Sequence record: OL956808.1
Length of the DNA stretch: 64,000 nucleotides
Source of the DNA: Escherichia phage vB_EcoM-S1P5QW
Strand: one strand, 5' to 3'
Numbering within the stretch: position 1 is the first letter of the stretch; every line of letters starts with the position of its first letter. This document shows, one piece after another, positions 1,581 through 49,384 of the stretch. The notes under the pieces were generated by a model. It was given only the letters and a program-made list of their open reading frames with translations, was not told the origin of the DNA and did not search any database. The position numbers were made by a program, and so were the translations under genes.

Positions 1581-3092
1581 TTATAAATTAACTGTTTTCA
1601 TTACGTAATTAAATTTTTCATCTGCGTAGCGCTGAATACGATCAATGCCGTGTTTTAAAAGATAGTTCAAATGAACGTATTTCTTTTTCGTATTAGCAGA
1701 TTTTGGCTTAACACCGCAATCATCAATGAGGTCCCAGACCGTTGCGATTGTTTTAGAACCATGCTTACGTAATACGCGACCTATTGTTTGCAATACAATA
1801 ATTTTAGATTTAACACCGTGTGCTAAAACAACGTGATGCAGATTTTTAACTGAAATACCAGTAGAAAATACACCATAACTAGCTACTATAATTATTCCTT
1901 TACCGTTTTCAGCTAAAGTTTTCATTACATTGCGGGTTTCGGTATCAACTTCCCCTGATACGTAATAAACTTTATCGTATTCATTTTTAATTAAATCGAA
2001 AATAGCTTTACCGTGTGATACGTGTTTAAACATGACAAAAGCGTTTTCATCTTTTTGCGCAAGCTTAATAGCTAATTTAGCGATCCATTTATTTCTTTTA
2101 CTGAGTCCAGTAATAATTTTTATTTCTTCTTGGTAAGTTTTTCCCTTTAATTTAGTAGTGAACTCATCGGGATAGCGAAGAAAAATACTATTAATTTTTA
2201 ACTCAGTTACTTGTCCATCTTCCATTAATTTAGAAGTCGTTACTGGCTTAAATATTTCACCAAACATTCCAACATACTGCATGATATTAGCTTTGCCATC
2301 ACGCAATGAACCGGACAAACCAAATTTAAACATGCAGTTATTTAAACCTGATATGATAGATGAAATACTTTTTCCTGTAGCAAGATGACATTCATCATTC
2401 ATCATCATTCCAAACTGTGAGAACCATTCTTTTGGTTGTTTTACTACAGTTTGCCATGTACCAACAACGACTGGTGCATCATTTTTATATTTATCATCTT
2501 TTGATGCTCCACCGCCGATTTTCTTTATCATTGCATGACTGAATAAACGATAGTCAACAAAGTCATCAGCCATCTGAGTTGTTAAAGCAGTTGTTGGAAC
2601 AATGATAAGAATTTTACCTTCATAATTTTCCAAATAATACCGAGCAAGCAGAGCTTGAATTAACGATTTACCAGCGGATGTTGGAAGATTAAGAATTCTA
2701 CGACGATTAACTAATCCTTCGAACACTGCATCTTTTTGATACCAGTGTGGTTCAATTCTTTTATTTCCTGAATAGATTTCTAATTTAGAAAGCCATTCAT
2801 CAAAATCTTTTCTTGATAATTCTTCTTTTTCGTTAATCTGCGGGTCAATCCAGGCTTTATAGCCAAAGTTATCACAGAACTTTTTAATTTGCCCGACTAA
2901 GCCGAATGGAAGAAGGCGATTATAATCTAAAAGACGGATTCGTCCATCCCAGTGACCATATTTGTATTTCGGATTAAAACGATACCCTTCAGCTTCAAAG
3001 CTAAAGAAATCACGGAGTTCATGAAATGTACTTTCTTCACAATCAATTCTCACGTGACTAAAATCATAAAAATGTACTTTAATGTCAGTCAT
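1581..3092 (-). CDS. uvsW: UvsW DNA/RNA helicase (SF2)
   Basis: 503 aa; Walker A TSAGKS and DECH box; matches recalled T4 UvsW. Confidence 0.9.
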   Translation of the reverse strand: MTDIKVHFYDFSHVRIDCEESTFHELRDFFSFEAEGYRFNPKYKYGHWDGRIRLLDYNRLLPFGLVGQIKKFCDNFGYKAWIDPQINEKEELSRKDFDEWLSKLEIYSGNKRIEPHWYQKDAVFEGLVNRRRILNLPTSAGKSLIQALLARYYLENYEGKILIIVPTTALTTQMADDFVDYRLFSHAMIKKIGGGASKDDKYKNDAPVVVGTWQTVVKQPKEWFSQFGMMMNDECHLATGKSISSIISGLNNCMFKFGLSGSLRDGKANIMQYVGMFGEIFKPVTTSKLMEDGQVTELKINSIFLRYPDEFTTKLKGKTYQEEIKIITGLSKRNKWIAKLAIKLAQKDENAFVMFKHVSHGKAIFDLIKNEYDKVYYVSGEVDTETRNVMKTLAENGKGIIIVASYGVFSTGISVKNLHHVVLAHGVKSKIIVLQTIGRVLRKHGSKTIATVWDLIDDCGVKPKSANTKKKYVHLNYLLKHGIDRIQRYADEKFNYVMKTVNL

Positions 3093-3121
3093 GTCTAAAT
3101 ACCATGTAATAAATATATCTA

Positions 3122-3129
3122 TATTTATA
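3122..3129 (-). promoter_or_regulatory. late promoter for uvsW
   Basis: Plus-strand tatttata = minus-strand TATAAATA, about 30 nt upstream of uvsW ATG. Confidence 0.6.
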
Positions 3130-3142
3130 CTGAGGAAATATT

Positions 3143-3823
3143 ATGATAGATAAAGATTATATTGCAGAGCTGAAGGCTCTTGATGATAACAAAGAAGCTA
3201 AAGCTAAATTAGCTGAATATGCTGAACAGTTTGGTATAAAGGTCAAAAAGAATAAATCTTTTGATAATATCGTTGTTGATATTGAAGAAGCCCTCCAGAA
3301 GCTCGCTAGTGAACCTATGCCAGAGACTGATGGGTTATCTATTAAAGACTTAATTGATGCTGCTGATGCCGCAGACGGATTAAAATATGACGATGAAGAA
3401 GTCAATCTAGAGGCAGCACTTCTGATTGATTCTCCGGTTAAATCTGACATTAAAATTGAAGTAGTAGAAATGGATAAAATTCCTGAAAATACCGATGTTT
3501 TGATTGAAGATACTCCTTTTGTTGAAGAAAAATTCGAGCAAGCTGTAGCTGAGATTATTGAATCTGAAAAGCCGTCTGTATTTACTCTTCCGGAAAACTT
3601 TAGTCCGAATCTTCAGCTGATTGGAAAAAATCCAGGATTCTGCACTGTTCCTTGGTGGATTTACCAGTGGATTGCTGAAACTCCGGATTGGAAATCTCAC
3701 CCAACAAGTTTTGAACATGCGTCGGCACACCAAACTTTATTTAGCTTAATTTATTACATTAATCGCGACGGATCAGTTCTAATTCGTGAAACACGCAATT
3801 CTTCTTTCGTAACATTAAAATAA
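3143..3823 (+). CDS. inh: Inh, inhibitor of prohead protease gp21
   Basis: 226 aa, same length and position as T4 inh, next to hoc; gagga RBS. Confidence 0.75.
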   Translation: MIDKDYIAELKALDDNKEAKAKLAEYAEQFGIKVKKNKSFDNIVVDIEEALQKLASEPMPETDGLSIKDLIDAADAADGLKYDDEEVNLEAALLIDSPVKSDIKIEVVEMDKIPENTDVLIEDTPFVEEKFEQAVAEIIESEKPSVFTLPENFSPNLQLIGKNPGFCTVPWWIYQWIAETPDWKSHPTSFEHASAHQTLFSLIYYINRDGSVLIRETRNSSFVTLK

Positions 3824-4968: not shown

Positions 4969-4992
4969 AGGGGCTTCGGCCCCTTTCTTCAT
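4969..4992 (+). terminator. intrinsic terminator after hoc
   Basis: Hairpin aggggc-ttcg-gcccct followed by T-rich run. Confidence 0.6.
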
Positions 4993-45331: not shown

Positions 45332-45361
45332 GTTTACAAACTCTCGGGAGTAGAGTATAAT
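45332..45361 (+). promoter_or_regulatory. early promoter with stem-loop
   Basis: GTTTAC, -10 gagTATAAT; inverted repeat gggagta/tactccc around -10. Confidence 0.6.
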
Positions 45362-45405
45362 ACTCCCACGGATTATAAAACCCTTAATTAACTAAAGGAA
45401 ATGCT

Positions 45406-45999
45406 ATGAACATGCTGAAGAAAATTGTTGAGTTTATTCGCACTAAACTTGGTTCTGCTATGGCTAAAAATCTATCTGTTGAAGAGCAGTATACTGCCGC
45501 AGCAGCAAAACTACTTGATAAAATTAAAGATCTAAAAACTGCTTCTGTTAAATCTATTAATGAAGAAAAGCGTATTCGTGAACTTATTGTCGAAAAGAAT
45601 CGACAGGCCGAATCAAAAGAGCGTGAAATTCGCAAGCTTCTTTCGGAAGGTCAAGATGTAACAATGCATGCTAAACTTGGTTTACTATATCGTCGAACAG
45701 CTGAGCAGTTGACTACTAAAGCTGATGGTTATGCTGAAATGCGAATTGAAATCGCCAAGAAAGTAGTTGAGTTAGATGATGCTCGCCAAGAACTTGCAGT
45801 TAAATTGGAATATATCCGTGAAACTCGCGCCGCGAATGCCCTCGGAATTAGTACTGCTGATGATGTAGTTGAAATTGCAGCACTGACTAAGGTTGATATT
45901 GAAGATACTCTTGCTCGAGTTGAAACCTTTAATGGCAATATTTCTGGGGTTGAAACTACCTCTGCCGATGTTCAGGAATACATTAATTCTCTGAAATAA
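45406..45999 (+). CDS. hypothetical helical/coiled-coil protein
   Basis: 197 aa; aaggaa RBS; own early promoter; terminator after stop. Confidence 0.55.
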
Positions 46000-46022
46000 T
46001 GATAAGGGGCTTCGGCCCCTAT
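45998..46022 (+). terminator. hairpin after ORF 45406-45999
   Basis: Hairpin aggggc-ttcg-gcccct; weak T-run. Confidence 0.45.
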
Positions 46023-46040
46023 TACTTGGAGTAAGTAGGA

Positions 46041-46646
46041 ATGAAAATGCAAAGTGATTTCAATTCAATGTTTGAAGAGTTCCAAAGACAGGTTGATGTT
46101 CCAGACCAATTATTAAATGCTCTTAAACGTATGGCAGAAGGACGTAATTATTATTGGGGTTCTTCATATGAAACTGATGAAAGTCTTTCTGGATTTTATA
46201 AAGGTAAAAAGTCTTTAATACGTCCTGGAATACTTATTAACAGTATTGAATCAATTCATTCATTAACATGTGATTTTGATGTTGAATTTACTGATTTCAT
46301 TTCTCCTGAATGGACAGTATGTTATTTAAACGACGATTATGATTATCTTGGCGTTTACAGTTTAAGTGACGCATGGTTTAAACGTAATTTACAAAAGTCA
46401 AATTTGTTCTATATTGATACTACGGTAAAATTTCAGGGAAAGAAATATTTCTTTACTCTTATAGTTGACTCTGAAACAAAATATGAAAATAAGCGTATTC
46501 TTAATAAAAAGAATATCTTAACTATCGTTGATGATCTTTTTGATAAATTCGTGGAAAATCCTAATTTTGAAAGCGATTTATTATTAGAAAAATTTGTTAA
46601 GGAATGTAGAGAATATGTCAAAGCCATCACTATACCTTCCAAGTAA
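46041..46646 (+). CDS. hypothetical protein, first member of C-terminal FVKECR paralog array
   Basis: 201 aa; aggaa RBS; C-terminus LLEKFVKECREYVK. Confidence 0.55.
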   Translation: MKMQSDFNSMFEEFQRQVDVPDQLLNALKRMAEGRNYYWGSSYETDESLSGFYKGKKSLIRPGILINSIESIHSLTCDFDVEFTDFISPEWTVCYLNDDYDYLGVYSLSDAWFKRNLQKSNLFYIDTTVKFQGKKYFFTLIVDSETKYENKRILNKKNILTIVDDLFDKFVENPNFESDLLLEKFVKECREYVKAITIPSK

Positions 46647-47007
46647 ACCCTTAAAGTATGAACTAAAGCGTCAGCTAATTCCTACTGATGTATTAATAGG
46701 TCCTGTGACAGCTATATCATTTGTAATTCTATTGGTTGTTGGAATGGTTATAGACTTTATGACTGATATTGAATCTGGCGTAATATTTTTGTTAGTATTA
46801 ATTCTTCCATTAGTAGTTCCATTTTTATTGGTACCTGTAAATTGGGTAGGATATTGGTATCAAGGAAGACATTATCGTAAACGTGTACGTGAATGGAAAG
46901 CTCAGTGTAAAAAGATTAAAAAGGAACACCAGCTTAAATTAGATATGCATGAATTTAACGAAATTATGAAATTTGTTAAGGAATCACGATGCAAAAGCCA
47001 AAACTAA
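46615..47007 (+). CDS. membrane protein, FVxECRK-motif paralog
   Basis: Track ORF starts at TTG 46594; ATG at 46615 gives 130 aa; 2 predicted TM helices; C-terminus MKFVKESRCK. Confidence 0.5.
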   Translation: MSKPSLYLPSKPLKYELKRQLIPTDVLIGPVTAISFVILLVVGMVIDFMTDIESGVIFLLVLILPLVVPFLLVPVNWVGYWYQGRHYRKRVREWKAQCKKIKKEHQLKLDMHEFNEIMKFVKESRCKSQN

Positions 47008-47363
47008 ATAAAGTCAAATATTCTTTTTCTGAGTCATTTTTAATTTTTGCTGTGGCGTTGGCTGCAGCTCTTGCTGGTAGTCTTATTGGATTAATGATTG
47101 ACTGTATTATTTTAAACATCCGCAGTAATGTCAGCGGTATAGTAGATATAATAGAAGTTTGGAGTGAACTTCATTATACTATAGCGATTTCATTATTTTC
47201 ATTCTTTGGTATTATTTTATATTTTCATTATGATAATTTTAAAATAAATTGGCAAAGAAAAAAGGATTACAAAATACAATTAAAAGAATATAATAACTAC
47301 ATGTCTTATATTGAAAATGAATCAATGAAAGAATTCGTGAATGATTGTAGGAAAATCAAATGA
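46989..47363 (+). CDS. membrane protein, FVxECRK-motif paralog
   Basis: 124 aa; 2 predicted TM helices; C-terminus KEFVNDCRKIK; overlaps neighbours. Confidence 0.5.
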   Translation: MQKPKLNKVKYSFSESFLIFAVALAAALAGSLIGLMIDCIILNIRSNVSGIVDIIEVWSELHYTIAISLFSFFGIILYFHYDNFKINWQRKKDYKIQLKEYNNYMSYIENESMKEFVNDCRKIK

Positions 47364-47848
47364 TTTTAAAAACTCGCTGGTATGATTTAGATGATGGGGA
47401 TGATGGCATTTCAGTTGATAGAGTTGACTGGAATGGCTGTTCCGAAGATATGAAAAATTTGCTGATTAGGGAGTTTAGAATGGGATATCAACCAGTTAAG
47501 CCATCTACTGCAACAGATGATAAATTCGTGTGTATTCATAATGGTCGCGCTAAATTAACGAACACTGATTGGTTCACAGATAAGATTATGATTCTGTGGT
47601 ATATTATTAGTTTTCCTGTGACATCATTTGTATTTTGCTTCTTTGGAGAAAGTCCAGTAGACAGAACGGGAGATTGGATTATTTTAACCATACTTGTTAA
47701 TATTTTTACAGCAGCAATATTATCTGGGATATGGTACACGTTCATTGAAATGCCATGGCGTTTACGTAGGCAGCAAAAGATTTTTGATGAAAAGAAATAT
47801 ACTCAAAATTTAAATAATTTTATCACCGAATGCAGGAAATTAAAATGA
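47360..47848 (+). CDS. membrane protein, FVxECRK-motif paralog
   Basis: 162 aa; hydrophobic segments; C-terminus NNFITECRKLK; ATGA overlap. Confidence 0.5.
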   Translation: MILKTRWYDLDDGDDGISVDRVDWNGCSEDMKNLLIREFRMGYQPVKPSTATDDKFVCIHNGRAKLTNTDWFTDKIMILWYIISFPVTSFVFCFFGESPVDRTGDWIILTILVNIFTAAILSGIWYTFIEMPWRLRRQQKIFDEKKYTQNLNNFITECRKLK

Positions 47849-48285
47849 AAACATTATCAGCTGGTATTATCTTTATGACAGAAGATAAAGATTTATTCAT
47901 GGGACGGGTTACTGGTTCTCGTAAGCCTGGAATGATGGCACATCGCTGGGATATTCCAAAAGGCCGTGTAGAAAATTCTGATTTGAGCGCACTAGATGCA
48001 GCACGAAGAGAATGCTTAGAAGAGACCGGTTTTAGCAATTATAATCCAGACCTTCTAGAAGACCTAGGTGTATTTAAATATTCTAGTAATAAAGACTTAC
48101 AGCTGTTTTATTATACGATTCCAGTAGAGCATGAGATGTTTAGAAATTGCCATTGCGAGTCTTATTTTGAAAATAAAGATGGTGTTATGATTCCAGAGAT
48201 GGATGCTTTTGCTCTTATTCCTCGTACTCAGTGGCAATATGTGATGGGTCCTTCACTTTACCGAATAATGAACAGCCTCTTTTAA
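47845..48285 (+). CDS. nudE: Nudix hydrolase NudE (e.1)
   Basis: Nudix box GRVENSDLSALDAARRECLEETGF; ATG at 47845 overlaps upstream stop (ATGA) and has aggaaa RBS; track start 47830 is an alternative. Confidence 0.8.
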   Translation: MKTLSAGIIFMTEDKDLFMGRVTGSRKPGMMAHRWDIPKGRVENSDLSALDAARRECLEETGFSNYNPDLLEDLGVFKYSSNKDLQLFYYTIPVEHEMFRNCHCESYFENKDGVMIPEMDAFALIPRTQWQYVMGPSLYRIMNSLF

Positions 48286-48816
<531 letters not shown>

Positions 48817-48820
48817 AGTT

Positions 48821-48850
48821 ATTTACTTTCTCCTAGAATTGTGATAGTAT
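48821..48850 (+). promoter_or_regulatory. candidate early promoter upstream of the IPIII-like gene
   Basis: -35-like ATTTAC and -10 gtgaTAGTAT. Confidence 0.4.
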
Positions 48851-48910
48851 ATTCACAGTTACTTGAAGAGATAAATTATTAATTAAAATATTTACATTTA
48901 AAGGATACAC

Positions 48911-49384
48911 ATGAAAACATATCAAGAATTTATTACTGAAGCAGCTATTAATTCTCAAATTATTGCTGAATCTTTTACTGATCTTTTGAAATTTAAAAAA
49001 GGACAGAAAATCACTGCTGTACTGGATGATGGTACAGAAGTTGAGATGGATGTACAGGGATATAATTATGCAGTAGATGGAAAACTGTATAATAAATCTC
49101 ATGCTAAATTTGATTCATTTGACGACTTTGTTAATACAGTTGAAGATGAAAAAACTCGTCGATCCATTGCAACAGGTGATGCTAAGGTTCTTATGGCACA
49201 TGGTCATGAACGTATTCGCGCTAAACAGAATAAAATGGGTGAAGATAATTTTGCATTAGTTGGTTATCAATCTGGTAAACAAACTTATGGCTATCAACGT
49301 ACTGCTACCATGTATAACAAAAATGGTAAAATTGCCTTTGTGAATAGTAAAGGTTCTATTCAGTACGTTAAATCGTTCAAATAA
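48911..49384 (+). CDS. internal protein (IPIII-like) with capsid targeting sequence
   Basis: 157 aa; N-terminus MKTYQEFITE-AA matches T4 CTS; adjacent to e as T4 ipIII; aagga RBS. Confidence 0.6.
   Translation: MKTYQEFITEAAINSQIIAESFTDLLKFKKGQKITAVLDDGTEVEMDVQGYNYAVDGKLYNKSHAKFDSFDDFVNTVEDEKTRRSIATGDAKVLMAHGHERIRAKQNKMGEDNFALVGYQSGKQTYGYQRTATMYNKNGKIAFVNSKGSIQYVKSFK

Follow-up and report, generated by a model that had tools for sequence, protein, structure and literature searches.

Four overlapping genes in a 64,000-nucleotide (nt) stretch of the genome of Escherichia phage vB_EcoM-S1P5QW (sequence record OL956808.1; the whole stretch is called the window below) raise the question of why their products share an ending. 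A first-pass annotation of the window had described them as a tandem array of paralogous small proteins with a common C-terminal motif. All four proteins do end in LxxF(I/V)x(E/D)(C/S)R, with tails as quoted in that annotation (e.5, ...LLEKFVKECREYVKAITIPSK; e.4, ...IMKFVKESRCKSQN; e.3, ...MKEFVNDCRKIK; e.2, ...LNNFITECRKLK). We propose, with a probability of roughly 0.45, that this motif is a portable C-terminal docking peptide for one common cytoplasmic partner.

We identified the four genes by sequence comparison. Escherichia phage AdolfPortmann (Bas44) and Shigella phage Sf22 match bases 45400-48900 of the window at 98% identity, and at least 80% of this stretch is covered in 495 phage records, nearly all of them Tequatrovirus. 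On this sequence similarity, we assign the window to Tequatrovirus. Comparison with the annotated genomes of T4 and phage Aplg8 gave the gene order e.6, e.5, e.4, e.3, e.2, nudE, e (lysozyme). As the first-pass annotation had supposed from their position, the four open reading frames (ORFs) are, by profile matches and synteny, orthologues of T4 e.5, e.4, e.3, and e.2. Each has a full-length PHROG match (e.5, phrog_2607, E = 9e-108; e.4, phrog_2604, E = 1e-70; e.3, phrog_2330, E = 1e-61; e.2, phrog_2203, E = 4e-79). Identity to the T4 proteins is 94% for e.5, 85% for e.4, and 92% for e.3, and e.2 of the window is 100 to 81% identical to 162-amino-acid (aa) homologues. Taken across the array, the orthologues are 81 to 99% identical, with equal order and overlaps, and in both phages these overlapping same-strand genes lie between e.6 and nudE/lysozyme e. 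The overlaps annotated earlier measure 32 nt (e.5/e.4), 19 nt (e.4/e.3), and 4 nt (e.3/e.2); the overlap of e.2 and nudE is 19 nt, or 4 nt with a nudE start at 47845. In contrast to the intact 162-aa e.2 of the window, the T4 reference e.2 is frameshifted and has 102 aa. The T4 GenBank entry L13089 gives the four genes the old names msp4 to msp7, and their T4 counterparts in UniProt are P39223, P39222, P32274, and P32273 (e.5, e.4, e.3, and e.2). Homologues bear the precomputed Pfam accessions PF26876, PF26873, and PF26896. The T4 gene records and the PHROG families give no function and do not mention a shared C-terminal motif.

These frames are expressed. In T4 infection, early RNA and detectable protein were reported for all five genes e.2 to e.6, so that all four array proteins are among those found by proteomics; e.4 and e.5 were classed as early proteins, e.2 and e.6 as middle, and e.3 as late (PMC9697503). 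The earlier statement that no function is established also stands: CRISPRi-ART on T4 lists e.2 to e.6 as "UNKNOWN" in function and "Not Fit" (PMC11879866), and HIDEN-SEQ transposon mapping lists T4 e.2 to e.8 as "Non-essential" (10.1101/2025.11.20.689424).

The motif is far beyond chance. The pattern F[IVL].[EDG][CSIV][RK], which was fitted to the four tails, occurs in the last 25 residues of 5 of the 531 six-frame ORFs of the window, and 4 of these 5 are the array. In the window and the whole genome of the closest relative, C-terminal tails with the Cys form are confined to e.5, e.3, and e.2. Position was counted over 11 representative loci (255 ORFs, 33,342 residues): F[IVL]xxC[RK] was found 26 times within the last 30 residues of a protein and once elsewhere, and the reversed pattern, as a control, gave 1 match. 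The motif residues are also among the few invariant columns when each protein is aligned with its orthologues from T4, RB69 (Mosigvirus), Dhakavirus, and Kanagawavirus. F185, E188, C189, and R190 of e.5 are invariant in the T4/RB69/Dhakavirus alignment, as are F116 and C120 in that of e.3. Across 20 homologues of e.2, with identities down to 25%, the only invariant columns are M41, F154, C158, and R159. The motif is kept while the bodies drop to 16 to 30% identity or cannot be aligned, and it is conserved in genera where the surrounding DNA is unalignable.

We surveyed codon use in 57 distinct motif DNAs. Cys is encoded by TGT (26) or TGC (23), Phe by TTT or TTC, and the Leu at position -3 by TTA, CTT, CTA, or CTC; the Arg codons are AGA (18), CGT (16), AGG (8), CGA (6), and CGC (5). 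The next start codon follows the Phe codon at a distance of 11 to 95 nt. Synonymous turnover of the motif codons and this variable spacing show that selection acts on the amino acids. The nucleotides are nonetheless in double use, the Shine-Dalgarno sequence of the downstream gene sitting within the motif codons. Where the tail is -CRK and then the stop codon, it is AAGGAA (the K-E codons), 9 nt before the ATG; in T4-type tails (-CRK[I/L]K and then the stop codon), which lose the K-E pair, it is AGGAAA (the R-K codons), 7 nt before the ATG. This constraint explains some of the preference at variable positions, not F, I/V, C, or R.

From 66 distinct tails, we derived the consensus [L/I](-3)-[E/N](-2)-x-F(0)-[I/V](+1)-x-x-C(+4)-R(+5). 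Positions -3, 0, +1, and +4 share one face of a helix, which is hydrophobic and lies beside the conserved Arg. Cys is preferred rather than obligatory, because the e.4 lineage carries V, M, S, or I at +4; these substitutions weaken an obligatory metal-binding or covalent role for the Cys. The motif strings were not found in the searchable literature. The genes are known as hypothetical T4 genes, and the motif itself seems undescribed; what appears to be new is a C-terminal tag that crosses families, together with recombination behavior at that tag.

By following the conserved gene e.6 into other genera, we found the motif in at least nine genera of T4-like phages, where it ends proteins of at least six families, mostly encoded downstream of e.6. 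The carriers are e.5-like, e.4-like, e.3-like, and e.2-like proteins, soluble proteins of 92 to 135 aa, and proteins of 109 to 116 aa; the genera are Tequatro-, Mosig-, Dhaka-, Kanagawa-, Marfa-, Moon-, Karam-, Tulane-, and Pseudotevenvirus, the motif being more internal in the last. Up to five carriers occur per genome, some membrane anchored and some soluble, and the gene right after e.6 bears the motif in 8 of the 9 lineages examined. RB69 (Mosigvirus) has a fourth carrier, ORF133c, ending in ...NFIKECRGK. Tails in IME523 and PEi26 (Kanagawavirus) are ...DFVDQCRANIK..., ...LFIKNVRRK, ...SFIQMCRGNQNVS, and ...NFIKGCRK; in Klebsiella phage R3_1 (Marfavirus), they are ...EFIKHCREAVNG, ...AFLKEMRK, and ...RFIKYCRGKHVS; and in Dhakaviruses, ...KLFLEYCRSDVQL. 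Salmonella phage KM16 (Moonvirus) and Enterobacter phage PG7 (Karamvirus) have four carriers each, and in Aeromonas phage Aes012 (Tulanevirus), a 290-aa protein encoded directly after e.6 ends in ...MFVDYCRRTAPKRE. PHROG scans identified the proteins after e.6 in Kanagawa-, Marfa-, and Moonvirus as remote homologues of e.5, and RB69 ORF133c and one PG7 protein as remote, N-terminally short relatives of e.2; the soluble carriers of 92 to 135 aa form families of their own.

We then compared the four bodies. Hydropathy gives no transmembrane (TM) segment in e.5 and two each in e.4, e.3, and e.2, the three for which TM helices had been predicted earlier. Each of the latter has K/R-rich termini and an acidic connecting loop (in e.3, the predicted periplasmic loop). 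By the positive-inside rule, this indicates inner-membrane proteins with two helices and both termini inside, which agrees with the earlier view of a cytoplasmic tail on variable bodies. The predicted cytoplasmic tail has 49 residues, basic in character, in e.4 and 45 residues in e.3. e.2 has a conserved soluble N-terminal domain (residues 1-74), two TM helices, and a TM2 prolonged as a long cytoplasmic helix. In an AlphaFold2 model of e.2 (20 homologues; predicted local distance difference test score [pLDDT], 70.9), TM1 is a helix at residues 74-95 and a single helix spans residues 103-161, so that TM2 runs on as a cytoplasmic helix of about 30 residues with the motif at its tip. The AlphaFold2 model of e.5 is poor (pLDDT, 54.7) and places a helix at residues 179-195; the motif lies in this last predicted helix, and the 11 residues beyond it overlap the start of e.4. 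In e.4, the Cys codon following the motif overlaps the ATG of e.3.

The claim that the four proteins are paralogues holds only in part. Profile comparison by hhalign, using shallow four-sequence profiles throughout, aligned e.3 with e.4 over 43 columns after TM2 (E = 2e-5), e.2 with e.3 over only 19 columns (E = 3.6e-6), and e.2 with e.4 over 23 columns (E = 3e-3). In addition, e.3 and e.4 have an N-terminal M-x-K-P-x-L in common, e.3 weakly matches the e.4 family phrog_2604 (E = 0.008), and e.4 and e.2 agree at about 21 of 22 nt where TM1 begins. Identity over the TM region and tail is just 13 to 19% among e.2, e.3, and e.4, and their likeness lies almost wholly in the tail and the architecture. 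The C-terminal likeness is thus statistically supported among these three, which plausibly descend, as judged from sequence, from one two-TM ancestor. Such support does not extend to e.5 and e.4 alone (E = 0.05, over only 9 columns); e.5 has only a 9- to 13-residue tail in common with the others, and we conclude from these alignments that it is probably a different protein bearing the same tag. The wide spread of this portable tag across families and genera points to a common docking or assembly peptide instead of a simple diversifying paralogue family, as had been suggested earlier.

A docking peptide could work as follows. The four are T4-type accessory genes in the plastic region that separates the conserved e.6 from nudE/e; they have early transcripts and protein products, and the phage can do without them on laboratory E. 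coli. By prediction, e.5 is cytoplasmic, and e.4, e.3, and e.2 are helical hairpins in the inner membrane, with both ends in the cytoplasm and TM2 prolonged as a cytoplasmic helix of 30 to 50 residues. Each protein is capped by an amphipathic helix, [L/I]-[E/N]-x-F-[I/V]-x-x-C-R, with V, M, or S in place of the Cys in the e.4 lineage, and the cap would bring unrelated bodies, soluble or membrane anchored, to one partner at or near the inner membrane. The candidate partners are e.6, the conserved protein encoded upstream, and, just as possibly, a conserved host factor; e.6 qualifies only by its strong conservation and its position immediately before a motif-bearing gene in the 8 lineages noted above. 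The motif has the marks of a docking short linear motif, namely, a fixed terminal position, unrelated bodies, and selection at the protein level, and conservation of about 9 residues at a helix end, the Arg fixed and the Cys preferred, is what a peptide-in-groove contact typically shows. More doubtfully, LxxF(I/V)xxCR might be an unrecognized addressing tag that plugs changing accessory proteins into one hub, either e.6 or a host inner-membrane machine. Such a hub would serve host takeover or antidefense as a general adaptor platform, and new cargo could be gained by recombination at the tag.

Several observations weigh against docking. The link to e.6 is one of synteny only, and several motif-bearing genes, in PG7, have no e.6 in their immediate neighborhood. 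Knockdown or disruption in T4 was without phenotype (PMC11879866; 10.1101/2025.11.20.689424). The motif is not uniform, given the residues at +4 in the e.4 lineage, and conservation at the x-E and R-K positions may be partly at the RNA level.

Other explanations of the motif were weighed against the same data. The proteins might dispense with a third partner and assemble with one another, their C-terminal helices bundling into homo- or hetero-oligomers, so that e.2, e.3, and e.4 would tether e.5 and the other soluble members in a single membrane complex of several subunits. Several members usually occur in one genome, cotranscribed and overlapping; their conserved residues lie on one amphipathic face with a/d-like spacing (-3, 0, +1/+4); and in the e.2 model, the tail forms a long straight helix. 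We consider this reading unlikely, since conservation is limited to about 9 residues and no extended heptad pattern precedes them, and since an invariant Arg and a preferred Cys would be unusual in a purely hydrophobic bundle. The examined regions of Aes012 and RB43, moreover, have a single member each, and phage vB_EcoM-UFV11 retains just e.5 and one fusion protein.

It is less probable still that the motif sets localization or lifetime, as a membrane-targeting amphipathic helix or as a C-terminal degron for a host AAA+ protease. An amphipathic, basic segment within the last 6 to 17 residues, present on soluble e.5 beside membrane proteins, is what either would look like, and the C-terminal helices of MinD and FtsA and ClpX-type C-terminal tags offer parallels. 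The hydrophobic face is small, however; lipid binding needs no invariant Arg or Cys, membrane proteins need no targeting helix, and the 5 to 17 residues that follow the motif in e.5-type proteins are atypical for a degron. Very improbable is a by-product of gene packing, in which nucleotide constraints at the junctions (ribosome-binding site, start codon, and recombining repeats) would produce the likeness with no function of the peptide. The next gene's Shine-Dalgarno sequence does lie in the motif codons and moves with tail length, a perfect 16-nt repeat joins the e.5 and e.4 motifs, and natural deletion endpoints fall in these repeats. Yet F, I/V, C, and R are kept through synonymous changes, including switches between CGN and AGR codons for Arg; the motif is conserved where the surrounding DNA is unalignable; and there was no match in Rfam. 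The synonymous turnover and the varying distance to the next ATG rule out a pure ribosome-binding-site or RNA constraint as the main cause.

If the motif is indeed a docking peptide, known systems offer partial precedents. The C-terminal tails of T4 gp43, gp33, and gp55 bind the gp45 sliding clamp, and the C-terminal tail of SSB is a similar hub binder. Such tails and the motif would have in common a short conserved peptide at or near the C terminus of unrelated proteins, and the L-x-x-F-[I/V] core appears to resemble clamp-binding plugs. In contrast, the C-R of the motif is not known from the clamp and SSB motifs, and three of the motif carriers in the array are membrane proteins. About half of the T4 genes are still without a function, the e.1 to e.8 block being a classic example; the nine-residue tag would give the orphan genes of this block one common handle, and one search for a partner could serve the whole set together. 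Should the partner prove to be a hub of the phage or the host, changing accessory functions would be attached to a fixed platform in modular fashion, and natural fusions and precise deletions show that members can be gained and lost without breaking translational coupling.

Such fusions and deletions trace to short shared stretches. The copy number of the array varies because recombination at these stretches remodels it. A perfect 16-nt direct repeat, AAATTTGTTAAGGAAT, occurs in e.5 and e.4; the two copies are 379 nt apart, and each is codon aligned in its own gene. A 10-mer, TCCTGTGACA, occurs at the start of TM1 in e.4 and in e.2, with no further copy in the window, and its copies are adjoined by near-identical 12- to 13-mers. 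In UFV11, a single 106-aa gene (3001-3321 of the extracted locus) stands in place of e.4-e.3-e.2: the first 33 codons of e.4 are joined in frame to the TM and tail part of e.2, with the crossover within TCCTGTGACA. Several Dhakaviruses are precisely without e.4, with the e.3 start intact and a hybrid e.5 tail, ...FIAECREYAKEVQNGTA, made of the e.5 tail and the last residues of e.4. Judged by these sequences, the loss is consistent with the product expected of recombination between the similar e.5/e.4 and e.4/e.3 junctions, and the 16-nt AAATTTGTTAAGGAAT repeat could support the same e.4-deleting event in the window. Among individual Dhakavirus contigs, L013 to L016 and L018 (compared with L007, 3466-4354) have the hybrid e.5 tail ...ECREYAKEVQNGTA and no e.4.

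The frameshifted T4 e.2 lies at 3153-3461 of its extracted locus. The remainder of the gene, including ...NNFITECRKL, persists out of frame in a 160-nt "gap" before nudE, and clusters of 102-aa e.2 occur in other phages too (P0173 and P0174).

Like the array, the hyperplastic regions of T4-type genomes with their PeSL cassettes are variable regions whose gene content changes via short-repeat recombination (PMC2839356, PMC4122927). However, PeSLs are intergenic promoter-plus-stem-loop repeats, and the repeats of the array lie inside coding sequence, in motif codons and at the start of TM1. We rejected a PeSL mobile cassette, since the genes overlap by 4 to 32 nt and the sole hairpin follows e.6.

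Superinfection exclusion and host-defense interference had been named earlier as possible roles, and homology supports neither. The T4 proteins Imm, Sp, RI, and RIII (the last acting with holin T), which serve superinfection exclusion or lysis control, are likewise small, early, and dispensable in the laboratory, with one or two TM helices, and their action through short soluble domains is a further likeness to e.2 to e.5. They have no sequence or profile similarity to the array proteins, however, and none carries the motif. Searches with the four proteins gave no Pfam, PHROG, NCBIfam, or PADLOC match to Imm or Sp (spackle), and the closest relative has separate genes for Imm and Sp in other parts of its genome.

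General searches added little on function. Pfam, NCBIfam, PADLOC, and PHROGs gave no match carrying a function, and a Foldseek search of the PDB with the e.2 model gave nothing with E < 1. A hidden Markov model of the e.5 family, run against 1.84 billion cluster representatives, had 9 matches at E ≤ 0.001, of which 5 were at E ≤ 1e-10; the others were weak, including a 952-aa protein at E = 1.9e-4, and no match was annotated or checked for origin. A single-sequence search with e.3 found only relatives of at least 70% identity. Four e.3 homologues (P0013, P0028, P0031, and P0032) bear the names "sulfurtransferase" or "DNA primase" at NCBI, some in entries assigned to E. coli or Salmonella; these are apparently misannotations or phage contigs that ended up in bacterial assemblies.

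We also rejected the possibility that the motif is a capsid-targeting sequence or gp21 site (…EFI[A/T]E↓), which is N-terminal with an obligatory (L/I)-x-E. The motif is C-terminal, position +3 is not restricted to Glu but takes Y, M, N, Q, D, H, L, I, K, S, or G in other genera, and integral membrane proteins are among its carriers.

The features discussed are collected in Table 1.

Table 1. Features of the e.6-nudE region of the window (positions in the 64,000-nt stretch)
Feature	Position	Strand	Evidence and remarks
Promoter-like site TTTACA-17-TATAAT	45333-45361		upstream of e.6
e.6 orthologue, 197 aa, predicted long helices	45406..45999	+	99% identical to T4 e.6, 87% to RB69 e.6
GGGGCTTCGGCCCC hairpin, UUCG loop, between e.6 and e.5	46006..46019	+	sequence; putative stem-loop in T4 record L13089
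e.5 orthologue, 201 aa, soluble, no TM segment	46041..46646	+	KD19 maximum 0.87
e.5 motif LEKFVKECR	46584..46610	+	translation
AAATTTGTTAAGGAAT, perfect 16-nt direct repeat, first copy	46590..46605	+	codons K-F-V-K-E of e.5
e.4 orthologue, 130 aa, two-TM hairpin	46615..47007	+	hydropathy, charge distribution, alignment; hairpin at about residues 26-80 (nt 46690-46854); length counted from the ATG used in annotated relatives, the ORF list starting at TTG 46594
TCCTGTGACA, start of TM1 in e.4	46701..46710	+	other copy 47614-47623, start of TM1 in e.2
e.4 motif variant IMKFVKESR	46963..46989	+	translation; Ser for Cys
AAATTTGTTAAGGAAT, second copy	46969-46984		in e.4
e.3 orthologue, 124 aa, two-TM hairpin	46989..47363	+	hydropathy, alignment; hairpin at nt 47031-47225
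e.3 motif MKEFVNDCR	47325..47351	+	translation
e.2 orthologue, full length, 162 aa	47360..47848	+	PHROG match, alignment of 20 homologues; TM helices at nt 47582-47746
e.2 motif LNNFITECR	47810..47836	+	translation; tip of C-terminal helix
nudE, Nudix hydrolase, overlaps e.2 end	47830..48285	+	Pfam NUDIX E = 1e-13

Upstream of the array, e.6 was found by tblastn in 1106 phage records, including Klebsiella, Enterobacter, and Aeromonas phages, and it almost always lies directly upstream of the first motif-bearing gene. Its identity is still 50 to 65% in Klebsiella and Aeromonas phages, yet the gene is nonessential in T4. Many e.6 records are named "host specificity protein," for which we found no support. 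The idea of e.6 as a PspA-like protein with PspB/C-like partners was not supported: there was no match to Pfam PspA_IM30 and no sequence match in the PDB, and alignment by hhalign with E. coli PspA gave E = 0.3 and a probability of 0.2%.

The GGGGCTTCGGCCCC hairpin after e.6 was picked up by a terminator scan on the minus strand only, and the scan found no terminator-like site on the plus strand. Transcripts of e.5 to e.2 must read through this hairpin. The same hairpin, with its UUCG loop, is present twice in the window (4970-4983 and 46006-46019).

At the downstream end, the start of nudE is ambiguous. The T4-style ATG at 47830 arises from the E-C codons of the e.2 motif and lacks a Shine-Dalgarno sequence. 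An alternative ATG at 47845, in an ATGA stop/start overlap, is the start annotated in Aplg8 and has the better Shine-Dalgarno sequence, AGGAAA, 7 nt before it, formed by the R-K codons of the e.2 motif. An ORF after lysozyme e (48911-49384) starts with the T4 capsid-targeting sequence, MKTYQEFITEA; the Aplg8 annotation has it as a putative internal head protein (IpIV-like), and its position is occupied in T4 by ipIII/ipII.

Two further C-terminal endings were seen outside the window. gp59 of AdolfPortmann (2500-3153 of the extracted locus) ends in ...NVFIETVKSCKY, a loose match to a relaxed form of the motif that is probably due to chance. Another tandem family, unrelated to the first, comprises small acidic proteins that all end in G-x-W-[VIQ]-S-S-S-x-x-C, with endings such as WVSSSMEC, WQSSSYQC, and WQPSSC. 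It lies just downstream of the e.3-like genes in Mosig-, Dhaka-, Kanagawa-, Marfa-, Moon-, and Karamvirus and is not in the window (extracted loci L004, 3731-4526; L007, 4691-5479; L022, 5710-7303; L023, 5567-7137; L024, 6078-6846; and L026, 5302-5828).

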